DNA of 63,272 nt, the filler included. It is 12 parts of 12 records of this genome, joined end to end, with 100 filler letters (N's around TTAATTAATTAA, not from the genome) between each part and the next. Parts side by side here need not be neighbours in the genome. Positions count along the whole stretch, not along the records: positions 48,202 to 50,234 come from SRR11831586_1722; 11 more parts are not named here. The stretch is one strand, 5' to 3'. Each line of letters opens with the position of its first letter. The stretch's first letter is position 1. This document shows, one piece after another, positions 6,884 to 63,272 of this stretch. The translations under genes were made by a program, and so were the position numbers. The notes under the pieces were generated by a model. That model was given only the letters and a program-made list of their open reading frames with translations. It ran no database searches and was not told where the DNA came from.

Positions 6884-6983
6884 NNNNNNNNNNNNNNNNN
6901 NNNNNNNNNNNNNNNNNNNNNNNNNNNTTAATTAATTAANNNNNNNNNNNNNNNNNNNNNNNNNNNNNNNNNNNNNNNNNNNN
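6884..6983. other. Artificial contig spacer
   Basis: 44 N + TTAATTAATTAA + 44 N. Confidence 0.99.
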
Positions 6984-7009
6984 GGCCTGATAAGCGTAGC
7001 GCATCAGGC
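6984..7009. repeat. Partial REP at contig start
   Basis: GGCCTGATAAGCGTAGCGCATCAGGC. Confidence 0.8.
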
Positions 7010-7067
7010 GATTTTGCGTTTGTCATCAGACTTAATCCGGGCATGATAGCCCGGATTTCCATCAAGA

Positions 7068-9227: not shown

Positions 9228-9327
9228 NNNNNNNNNNNNNNNNNNNNNNNNNNNNNNNNNNNNNNNNNNNNTTAATTAATTAANNNNNNNNNNNNNNNNN
9301 NNNNNNNNNNNNNNNNNNNNNNNNNNN
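9228..9327. other. Artificial contig spacer
   Basis: 44 N + TTAATTAATTAA + 44 N. Confidence 0.99.
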
Positions 9328-34980: not shown

Positions 34981-35071
34981 GTCTGATGCCGCACGTAGGC
35001 CTGATAAGACGCGGACAGCGTCGCATCAGGCATCTTGTGCAAATGTCGGATGCGGCGTGAACGCCTTATCC
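34981..35071. repeat. REP/BIME cluster running into contig end
   Basis: GTAGGCCTGATAAGACGCG...CGCATCAGGCA and GTCGGATGCGGCGTGAACGCCTTATCC. Confidence 0.88.
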
Positions 35072-35171
35072 NNNNNNNNNNNNNNNNNNNNNNNNNNNNN
35101 NNNNNNNNNNNNNNNTTAATTAATTAANNNNNNNNNNNNNNNNNNNNNNNNNNNNNNNNNNNNNNNNNNNN
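35072..35171. other. Artificial contig spacer
   Basis: 44 N + TTAATTAATTAA + 44 N. Confidence 0.99.
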
Positions 35172-39394: not shown

Positions 39395-39421
39395 TACGCC
39401 TTATACGAACAACACCACCCC

Positions 39422-39534
39422 GTAGGACGGATAAGGCGTTTACGCTGCATCCGGCAACCTATGCCTGATGCGACGCTGAAGCGTCTTATCATGCCTACAT
39501 AGCACTGCCACGTATGTTTACACCGCATCCGGCA
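39422..39534. repeat. REP/BIME cluster downstream of fbaB
   Basis: GTAGGACGGATAAGGCGTTTACGCTGCATCCGGCA and ATGCCTGATGCGACGCTGAAGCGTCTTATCATGCCTAC. Confidence 0.88.
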
Positions 39535-39572
39535 TAAAAACACGCGCACTTTGCTACGGCTTCCCTATCGGG

Positions 39573-39672
39573 NNNNNNNNNNNNNNNNNNNNNNNNNNNN
39601 NNNNNNNNNNNNNNNNTTAATTAATTAANNNNNNNNNNNNNNNNNNNNNNNNNNNNNNNNNNNNNNNNNNNN
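39573..39672. other. Artificial contig spacer
   Basis: 44 N + TTAATTAATTAA + 44 N. Confidence 0.99.
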
Positions 39673-41709: not shown

Positions 41710-41809
41710 NNNNNNNNNNNNNNNNNNNNNNNNNNNNNNNNNNNNNNNNNNNNTTAATTAATTAANNNNNNNNNNNNNNNNNNNNNNNNNNNNNNNNNNN
41801 NNNNNNNNN
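41710..41809. other. Artificial contig spacer
   Basis: 44 N + TTAATTAATTAA + 44 N. Confidence 0.99.
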
Positions 41810-45392: not shown

Positions 45393-45492
45393 NNNNNNNN
45401 NNNNNNNNNNNNNNNNNNNNNNNNNNNNNNNNNNNNTTAATTAATTAANNNNNNNNNNNNNNNNNNNNNNNNNNNNNNNNNNNNNNNNNNNN
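45393..45492. other. Artificial contig spacer
   Basis: 44 N + TTAATTAATTAA + 44 N. Confidence 0.99.
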
Positions 45493-48101: not shown

Positions 48102-48201
48102 NNNNNNNNNNNNNNNNNNNNNNNNNNNNNNNNNNNNNNNNNNNNTTAATTAATTAANNNNNNNNNNNNNNNNNNNNNNNNNNNNNNNNNNNNNNNNNNN
48201 N
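48102..48201. other. Artificial contig spacer
   Basis: 44 N + TTAATTAATTAA + 44 N. Confidence 0.99.
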
Positions 48202-48202
48202 G

Positions 48203-48934
48203 GTTGCGTACCGTGCGCAGGCGCTGCCCCCGGGGTACCAGTTCGTGGGGTCGGCTGGGGTCAGTCCCGAGCAGGACGAGGTTCGGACGGTCGGCTCCTC
48301 GGACCAGCTGCTGCGGCGGCGGGAGGAGGGTGAGTCGCAGGATGACGGGAGCACGCCGCCAAGGATCGAAGTGGAGGACTACTCGTACATCCAGGTGGTG
48401 CCCGAGCCCGAGTCTGACAGTGGGGACTCGCCCCCGCAGCCCGTGTGGACCCCGCAGCAGCCCCACGACGCTGCGTACGGCCGCTCCCCGCCCTCCGTCT
48501 CCGCCAGCGACACGCCCCCGATGCGCGCCTCCTCGTCTACGGAGCCGCTGACCATCGTGCGGATGCCGGCGGAGACACAACGCACGGACAACACATCTCC
48601 TCCCGGGACCCCGCCTATCCATGAGGAGGACCAGCCGCCGCTGATGATGTCGCCCGTGTCGACGGTGATTGTGGACCTGTCTGCGGACTCCGTGGTCAGC
48701 TCGCCGTCCACTGTGGTGTCGCAGCACATGCAGTATGCGGGACCCTCGACACCCTCGCAGCTCACACTCACACCGGCCACGGACATCACCACCACCGCCA
48801 CTATGATCACACCGAGAACGGTCACGTTTCCCCCTACGCCTGAGCAGTGGGCCATGTCGCCCCCGGCCGGTGCGTTTCGGACGGTGGCTGTGAATTTGGA
48901 TCAGCGGCTGCGAGAATCGCTGGAGCACTTGTAG
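48203..48934 (+). CDS. C-terminal part of an unknown Pro/Ser/Thr-rich, probably disordered protein (5' end missing)
   Basis: Frame open from contig edge (VAYRAQALPPGYQFVGSAG...) to TAG at 48932-48934; many SP/TP dipeptides; strong G/C third-position bias. Confidence 0.6.
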   Translation, partial: VAYRAQALPPGYQFVGSAGVSPEQDEVRTVGSSDQLLRRREEGESQDDGSTPPRIEVEDYSYIQVVPEPESDSGDSPPQPVWTPQQPHDAAYGRSPPSVSASDTPPMRASSSTEPLTIVRMPAETQRTDNTSPPGTPPIHEEDQPPLMMSPVSTVIVDLSADSVVSSPSTVVSQHMQYAGPSTPSQLTLTPATDITTTATMITPRTVTFPPTPEQWAMSPPAGAFRTVAVNLDQRLRESLEHL

Positions 48935-49590
48935 TGAACCTCGCCAGCCACTACGCCGCCACGTGGCCAGAATGTGCCGTTGAATCTGAATCTGAGAATG
49001 TGACGATGTAACAAAGGGGGACAGGTCGCAATGTGGTGGAATAGGGATAGTGTGTATTGGGGGTGCGAACCCGCTGCAACGCCGCGTGATTCGTGGTGGG
49101 AAGGGTTTGCACAGAGTGCAGTTCATAAGCTTCACATATTTTTGATACGTAAATCTGTAAGTAATTCGGAGAGAGTGTGTGTAACTGGGCGTTCTTTAGT
49201 TGGTTATTATTGATATCGTAAATAATATACTCGATGGGCATACGTGCTGACAAACACAGTTCGCCGCTGCAAAAAAACGATCGGTCCCACGCAAGTTGAC
49301 AGATGTATGTCATGGCAGGATCAACGGGGCAACAGGGCCGACGCGCGCGCACGGGAACCAGCCATCCGAACGACCGCGTACACAAGGTATGAATGTCAAC
49401 ACGGGACCGCTCACACCAGCACCGACTCCCAGACACCGGCACAATTAGACACTTGAGTCTGACCACGGATATACGGAGGCAATTGATGTGAATGCGCATC
49501 GCATCCATAGGATCGGCTTGGCCACAGAATCGCGATACCATACGTGCAACCTGCTTCATCGACCGTGACGGTGCCACTCCCCATATTGAT

Positions 49591-50188
49591 TCATTGTGTG
49601 GATGCCGCACGACGCACCAGCACGCGATACGTGAGTGGGGACCGCACCGTACGCTCTACTTCATCATACTGCGTCTCATCGACCGAAGGAAAGAAGACAT
49701 CACCCTCGTGTGGCACTATCATAACAAGCACGCCCGAGAGGCATCGTGTTAGTGAAACAGCTGAGAGGCAGCATATATAAAGATATCAATTTTGCTATAC
49801 GATGTGCAGTACACCAGCGAACCCCCACCACAAGCACACACCATCAATCTCGGTCAGGTACAGATGCGTGGCCAGCGGAAGACTGTCGGCGTACACCTTG
49901 GTCCCGCCGCAGATGAAAGGCATCGGGTCCGACTCCCACGCAGCCTCCAGCGCAGCAGCCAGTGTCGGCACCACCTGCACACAGCACAATCAGAGCGCAC
50001 AGCAACAACAGGACGGTTGTGCGGAAACAGTGATTCAATAGGATGAGGACCAAGAGCATGCACCGCACGGGAAGAGTACGAAGGAGTGGTACCTCGATGC
50101 CATCGGCCTTGTACGCCACATCGGAAGTGATAATGATGTTCCGGCGTCCTTTCAAAGGTTTTCCAACGGATTCGTACGTACGACGTCC
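49591..50188 (-). CDS. Intron-containing dihydrofolate reductase, partial: exons 50093-50188, 49842-49974, 49591-49715; N-terminal exon(s) beyond contig end
   Basis: Spliced: GRRTYESVGKPLKGRRNIIITSDVAYKADGIE|VVPTLAAALEAAWESDPMPFICGGTKVYADSLPLATHLYLTEID|VPHEGDVFFPSVDETQYDEVERTVRSPLTYRVLVRRAASTQ*; DHFR motifs GRxT..S, PL.GR.N, GG..VY, YLT.I, EGD..FP. Confidence 0.88.
49716..49841 (-). other. Spliceosomal intron (126 nt, phase 1) in the DHFR gene
   Basis: GATG|GTGTGTG...CACTAAC (49748-49754)...TTATGATAG|TGCCA; removal joins YLTEID to VPHEGDVFFP. Confidence 0.85.
49975..50092 (-). other. Spliceosomal intron (118 nt, phase 0) in the DHFR gene
   Basis: GAG|GTACCAC...TCTGATTGTGCTGTGTGCAG|GTG; removal restores the DHFR frame. 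Confidence 0.82.
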
Positions 50189-50234
50189 CTGCTGAAGAGT
50201 GAGATTACGCCTCCAAGAATCGAGCTAGATCGCA

Positions 50235-50334
50235 NNNNNNNNNNNNNNNNNNNNNNNNNNNNNNNNNNNNNNNNNNNNTTAATTAATTAANNNNNNNNNN
50301 NNNNNNNNNNNNNNNNNNNNNNNNNNNNNNNNNN
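50235..50334. other. Artificial contig spacer
   Basis: 44 N + TTAATTAATTAA + 44 N. Confidence 0.99.
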
Positions 50335-50335
50335 G

Positions 50336-50552
50336 TTGTTAACGACATTGACTGAGCCTCAGGATCGGTCGCTGGCGTATTAATAATCCACAGCTGGCTG
50401 CCGATGTGAAAACGGCGTGGTTAAAAGAGGATCCATCATTACTCTTATTTGTCGAACAACCCGATCTTTCGCTGTTACGTGATTTAGTGAAAACCGGGGC
50501 AACGCGGAAAATTCGCAGTGAAGCGCGTCACCGGCTTGAGGAAAAACAATGA
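50336..50552 (+). CDS. ykiA: YkiA C-terminal fragment, apparent extra base near 50377
   Basis: LLTTLTEPQDRSLA, then shifted frame INNPQLAADVKTAWLKEDP...RHRLEEKQ*; lies next to rdgC as in K-12. Confidence 0.7.
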
Positions 50553-50632
50553 CACAACGTCCATGGAGCAAGTTACAGCGTAAAACGCATAATATTGCTG
50601 CGCTAAAAATTATTGCTCGCCGTAGCGAATAA
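50549..50632 (+). CDS. 27-aa small ORF coupled to ykiA (probably the annotated small protein YkiD)
   Basis: ATGA overlap; MTQRPWSKLQRKTHNIAALKIIARRSE*; GAGG upstream. Confidence 0.5.
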   Translation: MTQRPWSKLQRKTHNIAALKIIARRSE

Positions 50633-50653
50633 TTATATGCCTGGTGTGGCTTC

Positions 50654-50691
50654 GTACGCCGGATAAGACGCGGCAGGCGTCGCATCCGGCA
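50654..50691. repeat. REP element
   Basis: GTACGCCGGATAAGACGCGGCAGGCGTCGCATCCGGCA. Confidence 0.85.
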
Positions 50692-50709
50692 TTAAAGGAA
50701 AATCAGCAA

Positions 50710-51621
50710 TTAACGTTGTGCTTCGCCACCTAATCCTTCAATCAGGTTTTGAATTAACGCTGCCAGTTCACCAGTCATCAGGATGAAATCGGCATCAAAA
50801 CGCTGGGCGAAATCTTCACGGTCGATATCTTCGTTTTGATCGCGCAGCTCGTCGCAGAACTTCAGACGCTTGAGCGAACCATCGTCGCACATCACAAACT
50901 GAATGCGCTGCTGCCAGTCGAGCGCCAGTTTAGTCACCACTTTTCCGGCTTCAATGTGATTGGTGATCTCTTCGCTGGTCAGATCTTGTTTCTTCGCGCG
51001 GATCACGCCGCCATCTTCCAGCAACGATTTCAGCTCGGCTTCATCAAGCAGCTGGAAGCCCTGTGCCGCACTACCGGAGCGAACCCATTCGGTCAGCGTC
51101 AGTTCAATCGGGTTTTCCATGCTCAATGGTACAACCGGTAACGACCCCAGGCTTTTACGCAGTAATGCCAGCGTATCTTCCGCTTTTTTGGCACTGGCGC
51201 AGTCCACCATAATCAAACCGTTAACCGTGTCGATCCACATCATTGTCTGGCTAAAACGGCTGAAAGCACGCGGCAGCAGAGAGTGCAGCACTTCGTCTTT
51301 CAGCGAATCTTTTTCGGTTTTCTTCAGCTTACGCGCCTGTTCCGCTTCCAGTTTGGCGATTTTCGCTTCCAGCGCCTGTTTAATCACCGGAGACGGGAGG
51401 ATTTTTTCTTCTTTGCGCGCGCAGATAACAATTTGACCATTGGCAACGTGCGTTAACGCATCGCTGTGCGATCCCATCGGAGGAACCCAGCCCATCTTCG
51501 CCATGTCCTGGCTGCCGCATGGGGTAAATGCCATCGAGGCTAGCTGTTTTTCCATCTCTTCTGCACGCAGCGAAATCTCGCGGCTAAGACGGTAAACCAT
51601 TAAATTTTTGAACCACAGCAT
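50710..51621 (-). CDS. rdgC: Recombination-associated protein RdgC
   Basis: [12 protein letters not shown] start; 303 aa. Confidence 0.95.
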
Positions 51622-51745
51622 GATAATTTCCACGGCCTTGTCGTTAAATTTAGCGGGCATGATAACGAATTGTCGGCGGCCTTGCATTGCCAATCCGGTT
51701 GTCCGTCTCTACGCTATTGATATTGAAAAAAATAAGGAGAGTACC

Positions 51746-52653
51746 GTGCGTATAGGTATCGATTTAGGCGGCACCAAAACTGAAGTGATTGCACTGGGCG
51801 ATGCAGGGGAGCAGTTGTACCGCCATCGTCTGCCCACGCCGCGTGATGATTACCGGCAGACTATTGAAACGATCGCCACGTTGGTTGATATGGCGGAGCA
51901 GGCGACGGGGCAGCGCGGAACGGTAGGTATGGGCATTCCTGGCTCAATTTCGCCTTACACCGGTGTGGTGAAGAATGCCAATTCAACCTGGCTCAACGGT
52001 CAGCCATTCGATAAAGACTTAAGCGCGAGGTTGCAGCGGGAAGTGCGGCTGGCAAATGACGCTAACTGTCTGGCGGTTTCAGAAGCAGTAGATGGCGCGG
52101 CAGCGGGAGCGCAGACGGTATTTGCCGTGATTATCGGCACGGGATGCGGCGCGGGCGTGGCATTCAATGGGCGGGCGCATATCGGCGGCAATGGCACGGC
52201 AGGTGAGTGGGGACACAATCCGCTACCGTGGATGGACGAAGACGAACTGCGTTATCGCGAGGAAGTCCCTTGTTATTGCGGTAAACAAGGTTGTATTGAA
52301 ACCTTTATTTCGGGCACGGGATTCGCGATGGATTATCGTCGTTTGAGCGGACATGCGCTGAAAGGCAGTGAAATTATCCGCCTGGTTGAAGAAAGCGATC
52401 CGGTAGCGGAACTGGCATTGCGTCGCTACGAGCTGCGGCTGGCAAAATCGCTGGCACATGTCGTGAATATTCTCGATCCGGATGTGATTGTCCTGGGGGG
52501 CGGATGAGCAATGTAGACCGTTTATATCAAACGGTTGGGCAGTTGATTAAACAATTTGTCTTCGGCGGCGAATGTGAAACGCCGGTGCGTAAGGCGAAGC
52601 ACGGTGATTCCAGCGGCGTACGCGGCGCTGCGTGGTTATGGCCACAAGAGTAA
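51746..52653 (+). CDS. mak: ROK-family manno(fructo)kinase, apparent -1 frameshift at 52502-52503
   Basis: GTG start after [31 protein letters not shown]-terminus MSNVDRLY...GAAWLWPQE* in another frame; span 908 nt = 3n-1. Confidence 0.9.
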
Positions 52654-52661
52654 AAAAACGT

Positions 52662-52761
52662 NNNNNNNNNNNNNNNNNNNNNNNNNNNNNNNNNNNNNNN
52701 NNNNNTTAATTAATTAANNNNNNNNNNNNNNNNNNNNNNNNNNNNNNNNNNNNNNNNNNNN
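52662..52761. other. Artificial contig spacer
   Basis: 44 N + TTAATTAATTAA + 44 N. Confidence 0.99.
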
Positions 52762-52790
52762 CGACGCTGTCGCGTCTTATCAGGCCTACA
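52762..52790. repeat. Partial REP at contig start
   Basis: CGACGCTGTCGCGTCTTATCAGGCCTACA. Confidence 0.85.
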
Positions 52791-52823
52791 AACCGTTACC
52801 GACTCGCATCGGGCAATTGTGGG

Positions 52824-57222: not shown

Positions 57223-57890
57223 CCTGGTCTCGTCGCCAGTTTCTCACCGGCGTCGGCGTGCTGGCAGCCGTCAGCGGCACCGCAGGGCGCGTGGTGGCGA
57301 AAACGTTGAATATCAATGGGGTGCGTTACGGCATGGTGCATGACGAGTCGTTATGCATCGGCTGTACCGCCTGTATGGATGCTTGTCGGGAAGTGAACAA
57401 GGTGCCGGAAGGCGTCTCGCGCCTGACGATTATTCGTAGCGAGCCGCAGGGCGAATTTCCTGATGTGAAATATCGCTTCTTCCGTAAGTCTTGCCAGCAC
57501 TGCGATCATGCGCCGTGCGTTGACGTCTGCCCGACCGGTGCGTCTTTTCGCGATGCTGCCAGTGGGATTGTCGATGTTAATCCGGATCTCTGCGTCGGTT
57601 GTCAGTACTGCATCGCCGCCTGTCCGTACCGCGTGCGCTTTATCCATCCGGTCACGAAGACGGCGGACAAATGCGATTTCTGCCGTAAGACCAATTTGCA
57701 GGCCGGTAAGTTGCCCGCGTGCGTTGAAGCTTGCCCGACCAAGGCGCTGACGTTTGGCAATCTGGACGATCCCAACAGTGAGATTTCGCAACTGCTGCGC
57801 CAGAAGCCCACTTACCGCTACAAGCTGGCGCTGGGAACCAAACCGAAGCTGTACCGCGTACCGTTTAAATACGGGGAGGTGAGCCAATGA
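57219..57890 (+). CDS. nrfC: 4Fe-4S ferredoxin subunit NrfC
   Basis: Tat signal SRRQFL; four Cys clusters. Confidence 0.97.
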
Positions 57891-58843
57891 CGCAGACTTC
57901 CGCATTTCATTTTGAATCGCTGGTGTGGGACTGGCCGATTGCCATCTACCTGTTTTTGATTGGTATTTCTGCTGGTCTGGTGACGCTGGCCGTGCTGTTA
58001 CGTCGCTTCTACCCGCAGGCGGGCGGTGCAGACAGTACGTTGCTGCGCACCACGCTGATTGTCGGGCCGGGCGCGGTGATCCTCGGTCTGTTGATCCTCG
58101 TCTTCCACCTGACAAGACCGTGGACCTTCTGGAAGCTGATGTTCCACTACAGTTTTACCTCGGTGATGTCGATGGGGGTGATGCTGTTTCAGCTCTACAT
58201 GGTGGTGCTGGTGCTGTGGCTGGCGAAAATCTTTGAACATGATTTGCTTGCCCTGCAACAACGCTGGTTGCCGAAGCTGGGGATCGTGCAAAAGGTTCTG
58301 AGCCTGCTGACGCCCGTTCATCGCGGACTGGAAACATTGATGCTGGTGCTGGCGGTGTTGTTGGGGGCTTATACCGGCTTTCTGCTGTCGGCGCTGAAAT
58401 CGTATCCGTTCCTCAATAACCCGATCCTGCCGGTGCTGTTCCTCTTCTCCGGCATCTCGTCCGGTGCGGCGGTGGCGCTGATCGCCATGGCGATACGCCA
58501 ACGCAGTAACCCGCATTCCACGGAAGCGCAGTTTGTACACCGTATGGAAATCCCTGTGGTATGGGGTGAAATCTTCCTGCTGGTGGCGTTTTTTGTCGGT
58601 CTGGCGCTGGGCGATGACGGTAAAGTTCGTGCGCTGGTGGCGGCATTAGGTGGCGGTTTCTGGACGTGGTGGTTCTGGCTTGGTGTCGCCGGGCTGGGGC
58701 TGATTGTGCCAATGCTGCTCAAACCGTGGGTCAATCGCAGTTCCGGCATTCCTGCCGTGCTGGCGGCGTGTGGGGCCAGTCTGGTCGGCGTGTTGATGCT
58801 GCGCTTTTTCATTCTCTACGCCGGACAGTTGACGGTGGCGTAA
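57887..58843 (+). CDS. nrfD: Quinol-oxidising membrane subunit NrfD
   Basis: WDWPIAIYLFL NrfD/PsrC family; 318 aa. Confidence 0.96.
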   Translation: MTQTSAFHFESLVWDWPIAIYLFLIGISAGLVTLAVLLRRFYPQAGGADSTLLRTTLIVGPGAVILGLLILVFHLTRPWTFWKLMFHYSFTSVMSMGVMLFQLYMVVLVLWLAKIFEHDLLALQQRWLPKLGIVQKVLSLLTPVHRGLETLMLVLAVLLGAYTGFLLSALKSYPFLNNPILPVLFLFSGISSGAAVALIAMAIRQRSNPHSTEAQFVHRMEIPVVWGEIFLLVAFFVGLALGDDGKVRALVAALGGGFWTWWFWLGVAGLGLIVPMLLKPWVNRSSGIPAVLAACGASLVGVLMLRFFILYAGQLTVA

Positions 58844-58862
58844 GCCAGAAAAGAGGTGGTTT

Positions 58863-60581
58863 CTGGACGTATTCCTTCCTGAAGTCGGTTTTCTGGCGTT
58901 GTTGTTAAGTCTCGGGGTCAACGTGTTGACCCCGTTGACGGCCTTCGCGGGAGTGCGGTTGCGCTGGCCTGCCATGATGCGACTCACTTGCATCGGCATT
59001 CTGGCGCAGTTCGCGCTCCTGCTGCTCGCCTTTGGCGTACTGACGTATTGTTTTCTCATCAGCGATTTCTCGGTCATTTATGTCGCGCAACATAGCTATA
59101 GCCTGCTGTCGTGGGAACTCAAGCTGGCAGCGGTGTGGGGCGGCCATGAAGGTTCGCTGCTGCTTTGGGTGCTGCTGCTTTCCGCCTGGAGCGCGCTGTT
59201 TGCCTGGCATTATCGGCAGCAAACCGATCCGCTATTTCCGCTGACGTTAGCCGTTTTATCTCTCATGCTCGCCGCACTGCTACTGTTTGTGGTGCTGTGG
59301 TCCGATCCCTTCGTGCGGATATTTCCACCAGCAATCGAAGGCCGCGATCTCAATCCGATGCTGCAACATCCCGGTCTTATCTTTCATCCACCGCTGCTTT
59401 ACCTTGGCTATGGCGGTTTGATGGTAGCGGCGAGCGTGGCGCTGGCGAGTCTACTGCGCGGCGAGTTTGATGGTGCCTGCGCCCGAATTTGCTGGCGCTG
59501 GGCGTTACCTGGCTGGAGTGCATTAACGGCGGGGATCATCCTCGGTTCCTGGTGGGCCTACTGCGAACTCGGCTGGGGCGGCTGGTGGTTCTGGGATCCG
59601 GTGGAAAACGCCTCTTTATTACCCTGGCTTTCTGCCACTGCGCTGCTGCACAGTTTGTCCCTGACACGCCAGCGGGGGATTTTTTGCCACTGGTCGCTGT
59701 TGCTGGCGATAGTTACTCTGATGCTGTCGCTGCTGGGCACCTTAATTGTCCGTTCTGGCATTCTGGTTTCGGTTCATGCGTTCGCGCTGGATAACGTCCG
59801 CGCCGTGCCGTTGTTCAGCCTGTTTGCACTGATTAGCCTTGCGTCTCTGGCTCTGTATGGCTGGCGAGCGCGGGACGGTGGCCCGGCGGTGCATTTTTCG
59901 GGGTTATCGCGGGAAATGTTAATCCTCGCTACGCTGTTGCTGTTTTGCGCAGTGCTACTGATCGTGCTGGTGGGAACGCTTTATCCGATGATTTACGGCC
60001 TGCTGGGCTGGGGACGCCTCTCCGTTGGCGCGCCGTATTTTAACCGCGCGACGTTACCGTTTGGTCTGTTGATGCTGGTGGTGATTGTGCTGGCGACGTT
60101 TGTCTCTGGCAAACGCGTGCAGCTTCCGGCGCTGGTAGCTCATGCGGGCGTGCTGTTATTTGCCGCTGGGGTCGTGGTCTCCAGCGTCAGCCGTCAGGAG
60201 ATCAGCCTGAATTTACAGCCGGGTCAGCAGGTGACGCTGGCAGGATACACCTTCCGTTTTGAGTGCCTCGATCTACAAGCCAAAGGCAATTACACCAGCG
60301 AAAAAGCGATAGTGGCACTGTTTGACCATCAGCAACGCATTGGTGAACTGACGCCGGAGCGGCGTTTTTATGAAGCACGCCGTCAACAAATGATGGAACC
60401 GTCAATTCGCTGGAACGGCATCCATGACTGGTATGCGGTCATGGGGGAGAAAACTGGGCCGGATCGTTACGCTTTTCGTTTGTATGTACAAAGCGGTGTG
60501 CGCTGGATCTGGGGGGGAGGATTGTTGATGATTGCGGGCGCATTGTTAAGCGGATGGCGGGGGAAGAAGCGCGATGAATAA
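58863..60581 (+). CDS. nrfE: Heme lyase subunit NrfE (CcmF paralog); start uncertain (CTG 58863, TTG 58899 or GTG 58923)
   Basis: WGGHEGSLL, WGGWWFWDPVEN, SVHAF CcmF motifs. Confidence 0.93.
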   Translation: MDVFLPEVGFLALLLSLGVNVLTPLTAFAGVRLRWPAMMRLTCIGILAQFALLLLAFGVLTYCFLISDFSVIYVAQHSYSLLSWELKLAAVWGGHEGSLLLWVLLLSAWSALFAWHYRQQTDPLFPLTLAVLSLMLAALLLFVVLWSDPFVRIFPPAIEGRDLNPMLQHPGLIFHPPLLYLGYGGLMVAASVALASLLRGEFDGACARICWRWALPGWSALTAGIILGSWWAYCELGWGGWWFWDPVENASLLPWLSATALLHSLSLTRQRGIFCHWSLLLAIVTLMLSLLGTLIVRSGILVSVHAFALDNVRAVPLFSLFALISLASLALYGWRARDGGPAVHFSGLSREMLILATLLLFCAVLLIVLVGTLYPMIYGLLGWGRLSVGAPYFNRATLPFGLLMLVVIVLATFVSGKRVQLPALVAHAGVLLFAAGVVVSSVSRQEISLNLQPGQQVTLAGYTFRFECLDLQAKGNYTSEKAIVALFDHQQRIGELTPERRFYEARRQQMMEPSIRWNGIHDWYAVMGEKTGPDRYAFRLYVQSGVRWIWGGGLLMIAGALLSGWRGKKRDE

Positions 60582-60957
60582 AGGGCTTCTCACGCTACTG
60601 CTGTTATTTACCTGTTTTGCGCACGCTCAGGTCGTAGACACCTGGCAATTCGCCAATCCGCAACAACAGCAACAGGCGTTAAATATTGCCAGCCAGTTAC
60701 GTTGTCCGCAGTGCCAGAATCAAAACTTACTGGAATCCAACGCGCCGGTGGCTGTCAGTATGCGCCATCAGGTTTACAGCATGGTGGCGGAGGGGAAGAA
60801 CGAAGTCGAAATCATTGGCTGGATGACCGAACGCTACGGAGATTTTGTTCGCTATAACCCACCGTTAACGGGTCAGACGCTGGTGTTATGGGCGCTGCCA
60901 GTGGTGTTGTTACTGCTGATGGCACTGATCCTCTGGCGAGTGAGGGCGAAGCGATGA
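60574..60957 (+). CDS. nrfF: Heme lyase subunit NrfF (CcmH-like)
   Basis: LRCPQCQNQ motif. Confidence 0.96.
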
Positions 60958-61550
60958 AACAGCCCAAAATACCGGTGAAAATGCTGACAACACTCACGAT
61001 ATTGATGGTATTTCTCTGTGTCGGCAGTTATCTGTTAAGCCCAAAATGGCAGGCGGTACGTGCGGAGTATCAGCGTCAGCGCGATCCGCTACATCAGTTT
61101 GCCAGCCAGCAAACCCCGGAAGCGCAGCTTCAGGCATTGCAGGATAAAATCCGCGCTAATCCACAAAACAGCGAACAGTGGGCGTTACTGGGCGAGTACT
61201 ATCTGTGGCAAAACGATTACAGCAATTCGTTGCTGGCGTACCGTCAGGCGTTGCAACTACGTGGTGAGAACGCTGAACTGTATGCGGCGCTGGCGACGGT
61301 GCTTTATTACCAGGCCAGCCAGCATATGACCGCCCAGACTCGCGCAATGATCGACAAAGCCCTCGCGCTGGACAGTAATGAAATCACCGCCCTGATGCTG
61401 CTGGCTTCCGATGCGTTTATGCAGGCGAACTACGCGCAAGCCATCGAACTATGGCAAAAAGTGATGGATCTCAACTCACCGCGAGTTAACCGAACACAGC
61501 TGGTTGAGTCGATTAATATGGCGAAATTGTTGCAGCGGAGATTGGATTAA
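60954..61550 (+). CDS. nrfG: Heme lyase TPR subunit NrfG
   Basis: ATGA overlap with nrfF; TPR repeats; 198 aa. Confidence 0.95.
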
Positions 61551-61891
61551 TCATCTGGTGATGAAGATTATGTCATTGAGCTGCATAAAAAATAATCGAA
61601 TGAACATATGCCAAAAATAATCACTAATCAGTATTATTGCAGATTAAACAAATAAAAATCTTTCCATAACAAATGGTTATTCATTAATCCTGCCATAAAC
61701 TCGCGTTATTATGCATTAATGCAGCGAAAAGCTCTGTTGTTAAAGGGTTGCGCAACATACCGCGCAAATGATACTGATCATAAGCGTTAAAAAAATCTAC
61801 AAACCAACGCAACACAATTCATGCCCTGGCAGTATGTCACGTTCTCGCGTTTCTGAACGGGGAACGGCGCTCCATTGAGGAAGTCATTCAT

Positions 61892-63205
61892 ATGAAAAAT
61901 ATAAAATTCAGCCTGGCCTGGCAGATTCTGTTTGCTATGGTGCTGGGCATTCTCCTGGGAAGCTACCTGCACTACCATAGCGACAGCCGCGACTGGCTGG
62001 TCGTCAATTTGCTCTCTCCGGCGGGTGATATCTTCATCCATCTGATTAAAATGATTGTTGTGCCGATTGTGATCTCCACGCTGGTGGTGGGTATCGCGGG
62101 TGTTGGTGATGCCAAACAGCTCGGGCGTATTGGCGCGAAAACCATTATCTACTTCGAGGTGATCACCACCGTCGCCATCATTTTGGGGATCACTCTGGCG
62201 AACGTCTTCCAGCCCGGTGCCGGGGTGGATATGTCGCAGTTGGCGACCGTCGATATCTCGAAATATCAGAGCACTACGGAAGCGGTACAAAGCAGTTCCC
62301 ACGGCATTATGGGCACGATTTTGTCGCTGGTGCCGACGAACATTGTGGCGTCGATGGCGAAAGGCGAAATGCTGCCGATCATCTTTTTCTCGGTGCTGTT
62401 TGGTCTGGGGCTTTCTTCCCTGCCCGCGACGCATCGTGAACCGCTGGTGACCGTGTTCCGCTCCATCTCTGAAACCATGTTTAAAGTGACTCACATGGTG
62501 ATGCGTTATGCACCGGTGGGTGTGTTTGCGCTGATTGCGGTGACGGTGGCTAACTTTGGTTTCTCGTCTCTGTGGCCACTGGCGAAACTGGTGCTGCTGG
62601 TGCATTTCGCCATTCTGTTCTTCGCGCTGGTAGTGCTGGGAATTGTGGCGCGCCTGTGCGGGTTAAGCGTCTGGATCCTGATTCGTATTCTGAAAGATGA
62701 GCTGATTCTGGCGTACTCCACTGCCAGCTCTGAAAGCGTGCTGCCGCGAATTATTGAGAAGATGGAAGCCTACGGAGCACCGGTGTCGATCACCAGTTTC
62801 GTGGTGCCGACCGGTTACTCTTTTAACCTTGATGGTTCGACGCTGTATCAAAGTATTGCCGCTATCTTCATCGCGCAGTTGTATGGCATTGACCTGTCCA
62901 TCTGGCAGGAAATCATTCTGGTGCTGACGCTGATGGTGACCTCGAAAGGGATTGCTGGCGTGCCTGGCGTGTCGTTTGTGGTGTTGCTGGCAACGCTGGG
63001 TAGCGTAGGTATTCCGCTGGAAGGTCTGGCGTTTATTGCTGGTGTTGACCGTATCCTCGACATGGCGCGTACTGCGCTGAACGTGGTGGGTAATGCGCTG
63101 GCGGTGCTGGTGATTGCCAAGTGGGAACACAAATTTGACCGTAAGAAAGCGCTGGCTTATGAGCGTGAAGTGCTGGGCAAATTTGATAAAACTGCGGATC
63201 AATAA
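61892..63205 (+). CDS. gltP: Proton/glutamate-aspartate symporter
   Basis: DAACS motifs STASSES, SFNLDG, DMARTALNV; 437 aa. Confidence 0.97.
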   Translation: MKNIKFSLAWQILFAMVLGILLGSYLHYHSDSRDWLVVNLLSPAGDIFIHLIKMIVVPIVISTLVVGIAGVGDAKQLGRIGAKTIIYFEVITTVAIILGITLANVFQPGAGVDMSQLATVDISKYQSTTEAVQSSSHGIMGTILSLVPTNIVASMAKGEMLPIIFFSVLFGLGLSSLPATHREPLVTVFRSISETMFKVTHMVMRYAPVGVFALIAVTVANFGFSSLWPLAKLVLLVHFAILFFALVVLGIVARLCGLSVWILIRILKDELILAYSTASSESVLPRIIEKMEAYGAPVSITSFVVPTGYSFNLDGSTLYQSIAAIFIAQLYGIDLSIWQEIILVLTLMVTSKGIAGVPGVSFVVLLATLGSVGIPLEGLAFIAGVDRILDMARTALNVVGNALAVLVIAKWEHKFDRKKALAYEREVLGKFDKTADQ

Positions 63206-63244
63206 TTGAAGATTGCCGGGGATATCCACCCGGCAATGTGTGAA

Positions 63245-63272
63245 TGCCTGATGCGACGCTTGCCGCGTCTTA
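63245..63272. repeat. Partial REP at window end
   Basis: ATGCCTGATGCGACGCTTGCCGCGTCTTA. Confidence 0.8.

Follow-up and report, generated by a model that had tools for sequence, protein, structure and literature searches.

The stretch of DNA analysed here (the window; 63,272 nucleotides (nt), filler included) is a concatenated draft assembly of Escherichia coli contigs, one of which, positions 48202-50234, is very probably a contaminant derived from a eukaryote. On its minus strand, this contig carries the 3' two-thirds of a short, monofunctional, FolA-like dihydrofolate reductase (DHFR) gene with at least three spliceosomal-type introns. Its eukaryotic origin is strongly suggested by the anatomy of the introns, by break points shared with relatives and by base composition. 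An earlier note made from the sequence had spoken of a functional eukaryotic nuclear gene in a bacterial pseudo-scaffold. The concatenated E. coli pseudo-scaffold, the free-standing foreign contig and the intron-split DHFR gene have all stood up, while "functional" and "nuclear" say too much and "eukaryotic" is retained here only at the strength just given. According to the favoured scenario, a eukaryote would have contaminated the sample or the sequencing run, and its stray contig would have been concatenated with genuine E. coli contigs. The spliced mRNA would then encode the NADPH- and folate-binding core of the enzyme, from the equivalent of FolA residue G43 to the C-terminus, and the enzyme, whose function is predicted from its sequence, would convert dihydrofolate to tetrahydrofolate with NADPH.

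Read along the minus strand, the gene enters the contig within an upstream intron that is cut by the contig end (50189-50234, 46 nt) and whose acceptor, ...CTCTTCAGCAG, ends at 50189. It is followed by exon 1 (50093-50188, 96 nt, 32 codons), which covers FolA residues 43-73 and the GRRTYES...PLKGRRN motif region, and by intron 1 (49975-50092, 118 nt, GTACCA...TGCAG). Exon 2 (49842-49974, 133 nt, 44 codons plus 1 nt) corresponds to FolA residues 74-116 and contains the PFICGG and YLTEID motifs. Intron 2 (49716-49841, 126 nt, GTGTGT...GATAG) separates it from the last coding exon (49591-49715), which spans FolA residues 117-159, carries the HEGDVFFP motif and ends with the stop codon TGA at 49593-49591. 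Projected onto FolA, the introns lie just before codon 43, after residue 73 (intron 1, phase 0) and inside codon 117 (intron 2, phase 1). Joining of the three exons gives a single open frame of 117 codons plus stop; intron 1, if retained, shifts the frame, and intron 2, if retained, brings in an in-frame stop. Exons have a GC content of 0.582 and a third-position GC content (GC3) of 0.636, with lower GC contents of 0.534 and 0.468 in introns 1 and 2, respectively. Branch-like motifs of the form CTRAY are found in both introns, CTGAT 15 nt from the 3' end in intron 1 and CACTAAC, whose branch A is at a distance of 33 nt, in intron 2. Coordinates and lengths of the two GT...AG segments, the CACTAAC motif placed about 30 nt before the AG, the 117-residue frame left after their removal and a third acceptor ahead of the first visible exon had all been proposed in the earlier note and were recovered here.

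The exact position of both junctions was assessed by taking all GT..AG pairs around them that leave an open frame to the same stop, and scoring the resulting products with a hidden Markov model (HMM) trained on 59 continuous DHFRs (E. coli FolA and 58 database matches). Among 129 such open combinations the proposed pair ranked first, with 144.9 bits (E 9e-45) versus 133.2 bits for the next one, a margin of 11.7 bits. The unspliced frames reached 78.0, 35.1 and -2.4 bits. Moreover, alignments of the spliced product with P0001 (107 residues, 51% identity, E 8e-43), P0020 (112 residues, 54%) and P0012 (112 residues, 47%) run through both junctions without a gap. These results support a DHFR gene that is split by spliceosomal-type GT-AG introns with exact junctions.

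As an alternative, two insertions could resemble introns by chance only, the locus being either a folA-like bacterial pseudogene in decay or an artefact of sequencing or assembly. Such an explanation would account for a protein of bacterial type whose closest named relatives come from bacterial metagenome-assembled genomes (MAGs), and the E. coli-like genome G001 used for comparison below illustrates how many frameshifts a poor assembly can introduce into folA. However, each insert is bounded by GT and AG and contains a branch-like motif, and the removal of both restores the register without gap or loss. The exons carry no other lesions, and the third acceptor sits exactly where homology begins. 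Since the GT-AG register is restored exactly, the removal is the top-scoring one of 129 alternatives, and homology is interrupted at the same places in three independent relatives, decay or artefact is considered very unlikely.

Membership in the DHFR family is evident for each exon separately. Exon 1 alone exceeds the curated cut-off of PF00186 (DHFR_1; 25 bits) with 34.8 bits over profile positions 43-73, and exons 2 and 3 follow with 24.4 bits (77-117) and 13.4 bits (121-141), so that the three exons are collinear and nearly abutting on the profile. DHFR chains in PDB are matched by exons 1, 2 and 3 at chain positions of about 41-74, 80-124 and 122-144, respectively, in the case of exon 1 with an E value of 1.4e-8. 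Every PDB match listed for the individual exons is a DHFR of 156-182 residues or an engineered fusion, and no chain named as a fusion with thymidylate synthase (DHFR-TS) is found among them. Compared with annotated E. coli FolA (WP_000624375.1, 159 residues, a type 3 dihydrofolate reductase of the same PF00186 fold family), 41 of 110 aligned residues of the spliced product are identical, i.e., only 37%. From G43 to the C-terminus, FolA likewise counts 117 residues, as the earlier note had stated. The motif residues named there are all identical in this alignment, the identities including G43, R44, T46, S49, L54, R57, G95, G96, Y100, T113 and E120-G121-D122-x-x-F125-P126. Out of these, G43, R44, T46, L54, R57, G95-G96, Y100 and T113 are presumably involved in NADPH or folate binding.

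A thymidylate synthase domain was not encountered downstream, as the frame ends with its TGA right after the DHFR C-terminus, and a 234-residue stop-to-stop frame on the same strand (48951-49655) matches no Pfam family. With a stop at the very end of the DHFR domain and no family in the frame that follows, the gene is not a DHFR-TS fusion. The predicted protein is a short, monofunctional DHFR of bacterial (FolA-like) type, unlike a typical eukaryotic DHFR or DHFR-TS, a point that the earlier note had not raised.

At the opposite end, homology starts exactly at the equivalent of FolA G43, directly after the CAG acceptor, and the in-frame residues upstream of the glycine in GRRTY do not resemble the conserved V-I-M-G of homologues. 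For these two reasons, a third intron, cut by the contig end, is predicted to precede the first visible exon, with positions 50234 to 50189 being non-coding. When six homologues were used as tblastn queries, the N-terminal DHFR segment was found nowhere in the window, and the first approximately 42 codons lie off the contig, beyond position 50234. In FolA, these codons hold the catalytic acid (D27) and the Met20 loop.

Sequence relatives of the gene are scarce and mostly short. Word-indexed protein searches returned nothing for exon 1, nor for exon 2 against longer proteins. An exhaustive phmmer search with exon 2 against 1.84 billion representatives yielded 31 proteins at E≤1e-3. The closest four, judged by their distance in the tree and their identity in exon 2 (55-67%), are P0001, P0002, P0004 and P0005, all of them short singletons. 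P0001 (110 residues, from Logan) is continuous across all three exons and resembles bacterial DHFR clusters of the protein atlas. The other three are interrupted or terminated where the window gene has its introns. P0005 (95 residues, on a 10,164-nt JGI contig) contains a 16-residue in-frame insert exactly at the site of intron 2, visible as one gap in the BLAST alignment. In P0002 (60 residues, Logan), homology ends directly after ...TEID, and P0004 (64 residues, JGI/IMG) is homologous only between ...FFFVTVQ and ...TEI, with residues before its match that resemble a translated pyrimidine tract followed by CAG. P0005, P0002 and P0004 may hence be exon-sized open reading frame (ORF) calls on intron-bearing copies with the same intron positions. 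These split-type fragments are nearest to the window gene in the tree described below and stem from different organisms, being at most 67% identical to it, and the insert of P0005 measures 16 codons in comparison to the 126 nt of intron 2 in the window gene.

When 7908 candidates with lengths of 23-193 residues were searched with a profile of the subgroup, 294 proteins reached E≤1e-3, and among the 120 matches listed, all organism-named sources are bacterial MAGs, namely Deltaproteobacteria, Myxococcota (two), Myxococcales, Planctomycetota, Planctomycetes and Pseudoxanthomonas. The closest full-length relatives are short DHFRs from MAGs of uncultured Deltaproteobacteria, Myxococcota and Planctomycetota (for example P0008, i.e., RMG12375.1, as well as P0020, P0021 and P0033), which share length and motifs with the spliced product and are 47-54% identical to it over 112-118 residues, several of them without gaps. 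A scan of metagenomes gave 13 loci with 36-49% identity, and in species-representative genomes 14 loci, all bacterial, were detected, led by one from a Deltaproteobacteria MAG (56%). The metagenome loci, among which the contig of P0005 was not found, are each continuous across the exon junctions, as are the short MAG DHFRs, whereas the window gene is split at both sites. Two of the proteins matched by exon 2 in the phmmer search stand apart. P0022 (339 residues) has its DHFR match at residues 258-299, after an N-terminal extension of more than 200 residues, and may be a fusion protein. P0003 (262 residues) is repetitive, with five stretches matching exon 2 at 34% identity, and is probably spurious.

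Regarding the contig itself (48202-50234; 2033 bp, the tenth of the window, between two N44-TTAATTAATTAA-N44 linkers), its GC content of 0.583 is the highest among the twelve contigs. Comparison with G001, the E. coli-like genome that was the nearest one used, covered window positions 1-60000 in three pieces. Over this range, eleven of the twelve contigs align at 94-100% identity over their whole length. For the last contig, the match was followed to base 59998, bases 60001-63272 lying outside the comparison. In contrast, no part of the tenth contig matches G001, and distant-mode blastn against 5426 complete E. coli genomes (20,395 records) retrieved nothing. Likewise, no match was obtained in 72,556 plasmids or in 50,697 phage records, and no copy was seen in the scan of species-representative genome contigs. 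Because eleven contigs match G001 while the tenth matches nowhere searched, the latter is not E. coli DNA but a foreign contig that stands by itself within the E. coli draft assembly. E. coli possesses its own intact folA in any case: a query with the folA region matches 5426 of 5426 genomes, and the fetched copy is an uninterrupted coding sequence of 159 codons.

In principle, the contig could also be integrated in the chromosome or a plasmid of the E. coli strain as a result of eukaryote-to-bacterium transfer, and it was indeed deposited within an E. coli assembly. Yet, both of its ends are foreign, no E. coli, insertion sequence (IS) or plasmid sequence was found on it in the searches mentioned above, and it is absent from all 5426 complete E. 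coli genomes. An intron-split gene would also be useless to a bacterium. Integration is therefore regarded as extremely improbable. For the E. coli genome, the contig is a matter of quality control only, and it should be flagged as contamination and not be annotated as bacterial.

Besides the DHFR gene, the contig harbours an ORF on the plus strand (48203-48934), which comprises 243 codons, is truncated at its 5' end by the contig end and encodes a Ser/Thr/Pro-rich product. It is convergent with the DHFR gene and displays a GC3 of 0.832, which the other frames do not share. No Pfam family, no usable match in the protein atlas and no relative in 2.9 million viral contigs were found for it. This ORF probably represents the 3' part of another gene from the same source organism. 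Between the two convergent 3' ends lies a spacer of 656 nt (48935-49590) with a GC content of 0.517, and neither the spacer nor the rest of the contig contains an Rfam family or a tRNA. In our judgement, this layout, with a convergent ORF and a 656-nt spacer of lower GC content, looks eukaryotic and unlike the compact packing expected of a bacterium.

Another source to be considered is a giant DNA virus (Nucleocytoviricota) infecting a protist, since some of these viruses combine a high GC content with genes for folate enzymes and with spliceosomal-type introns processed by the host. The 58% GC of the contig, the short GT-AG introns, the family-less, low-complexity neighbouring ORF and the missing cellular match would suit such a virus. 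Nevertheless, like the ORF, the DHFR subgroup alignment has no relative in the 2.9 million viral contigs, the contig is without match in the phage collection, and a 656-nt non-coding spacer together with three introns within 600 nt is unusual for a virus. Altogether, a viral origin has only a slight chance of being correct.

To place the DHFR among its relatives, a tree was calculated in a quick IQ-TREE run with 64 rows and 160 columns. Out of 146 proteins, the 55 top-ranking BLAST hits with a length of 140 residues or more were included, as were those of the seven organism-named proteins not yet among them; the spliced product, FolA and the four split-type fragments completed the set. P0003 and P0022 were excluded, and canonical eukaryotic DHFRs were not part of the tree. 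The five split-type sequences (the window gene, P0001, P0002, P0004 and P0005) fall on one side of a single branch, a grouping that was equalled in 0 of 500 label shuffles. The window gene is not placed inside any one bacterial group with support, and 34 of 60 inner branches have support values below 80. As the split-type group sits among bacterial DHFRs, an old transfer from a bacterium to a eukaryote, followed by intron gain, would be the likeliest history. We give slightly less than even chances to the proposition that the DHFR gene reached eukaryotes by transfer from bacteria. In a bolder version, with comparable odds, a eukaryotic lineage would have acquired a bacterial folA-type DHFR by horizontal transfer long ago, gained at least three introns and kept the gene, this lineage being absent at about 70% identity or more from some 15 billion predicted proteins.

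Without any bacterial transfer, the gene could also be a vertically inherited, short and divergent eukaryotic DHFR, in which case the source would still be a eukaryotic contaminant. Vertebrate DHFR has about 186 residues, and opisthokonts and amoebozoans have an unfused DHFR, to which the stop directly after the domain would fit. Furthermore, trees over about 110-160 columns resolve poorly, as seen from the proportion of poorly supported branches, and the present one was built without the canonical eukaryotic enzymes. Contrary to what vertical descent would suggest, all structure matches listed for the exons are, as described above, chains of 156-182 residues or engineered fusions, and among the 58 sequences matching exon 2 at E≤1, none is named as bifunctional DHFR-TS and none has a length of about 186 residues. 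In addition, from G43 onwards the product is exactly as long as FolA, and the best full-length relatives, with identities of 47-54%, include named bacterial MAGs. Taken together, vertical inheritance is rather unlikely, but clearly less so than the viral or pseudogene explanations.

Several observations weigh against an intron-bearing eukaryotic gene of bacterial ancestry. The donor of intron 1, GTACCA, is atypical and far from the usual GTRAGT-like consensus of 5' splice sites, and pyrimidines make up a modest 57-62% of the last 40 nt of the introns. Splicing in vivo is predicted from sequence alone, and the intron positions apparently shared by the relatives are deduced from protein sequences only. 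No named eukaryotic homologue occurs among the 120 matches listed out of 294, nor among the 31 phmmer matches, although the 294-protein search covered candidates of 23-193 residues, so that longer eukaryotic forms could escape it. Finally, the clade of split-type sequences has an SH-aLRT (a branch support measure) of only 65, and three of its rows fill less than half of the columns. Since canonical eukaryotic DHFRs are not in it, the tree demonstrates clustering, but does not tell whether a transfer took place, nor in which direction.

Canonical eukaryotic DHFRs belong to the same enzyme family and are encoded by nuclear genes with spliceosomal introns. They are generally longer than the bacterial chains and are monofunctional in animals and fungi, while plants and most protists possess the DHFR-TS fusion. 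In contrast to DHFR-TS with its fused thymidylate synthase, the window gene stops after the DHFR domain, and its length matches that of bacterial chains. The fusion state of DHFR has been used as a marker for deep relationships among eukaryotes, and lineages with an extra or a replacement DHFR of bacterial type would be relevant to this argument. Fused DHFR-TS of oomycetes and diatoms is listed in a published article (PMC2705460). For anaerobic gut fungi (Neocallimastigomycota), a figure legend in a study of their horizontally acquired genes lists a "DHFR family" gene (bioRxiv 10.1101/487215). It offers a possible precedent for a DHFR-family gene of bacterial origin in a eukaryote. These fungi are AT-rich, as opposed to the 58% GC of the foreign contig. 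In the literature searched, supplements aside, no eukaryote turned up for which a short DHFR of bacterial type with introns had been described.

The gene is a new member of a known enzyme family, with a transfer history that is plausible but unproven. A FolA-like DHFR with apparently shared intron sites would suggest a fully domesticated bacterium-to-eukaryote transfer in barely sampled organisms. If the transfer took place, conservation of the intron positions in at least four divergent environmental relatives would point to a small, undescribed family of "bacterial" DHFRs, used in addition to, or in place of, the canonical eukaryotic DHFR or DHFR-TS.

Concerning the window as a whole, its twelve contigs are joined by eleven identical artificial linkers, each consisting of 44 N, TTAATTAATTAA and another 44 N and carrying stops in all six frames. 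They are located at positions 6884-6983, 9228-9327, 20442-20541, 24578-24677, 35072-35171, 39573-39672, 41710-41809, 45393-45492, 48102-48201, 50235-50334 and 52662-52761. Because the window is a concatenated draft assembly, gene adjacency across these linkers is meaningless. The adjoining contig 50335-52661, for instance, represents the rdgC/mak region, which is present in 5425 of 5426 complete E. coli genomes.

G001 has a completeness score of only 44%, and its folA (L028, G001:C1:46847-50266) is full of frameshifts and stops, with two TGA and two TAA codons inside the match. It was consequently rejected as FolA reference in favour of the annotated E. coli folA. G001 looks like an error-rich assembly, which is probably the reason for the identities of 94-97% obtained with several window contigs. 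Five short stretches of the window (6984-7054, 34988-35071, 39413-39542, 50649-50702 and 52762-52819) match dozens of G001 sites at 72-100% identity; four of them sit at contig ends, several contig breaks fall in them, and we take them to be repeats of the REP/BIME type. Positions 57887-60581 (plus strand) exhibit an AT skew of -0.35, with 58% GC at 58-60 kb, due to two membrane-protein genes. One of these encodes an NrfD domain (396.9 bits) and the other a CcmF/NrfE-like protein (Cytochrom_C_asm and CcmF_C), and the region, which matches G001, is ordinary E. coli nrf-type DNA.

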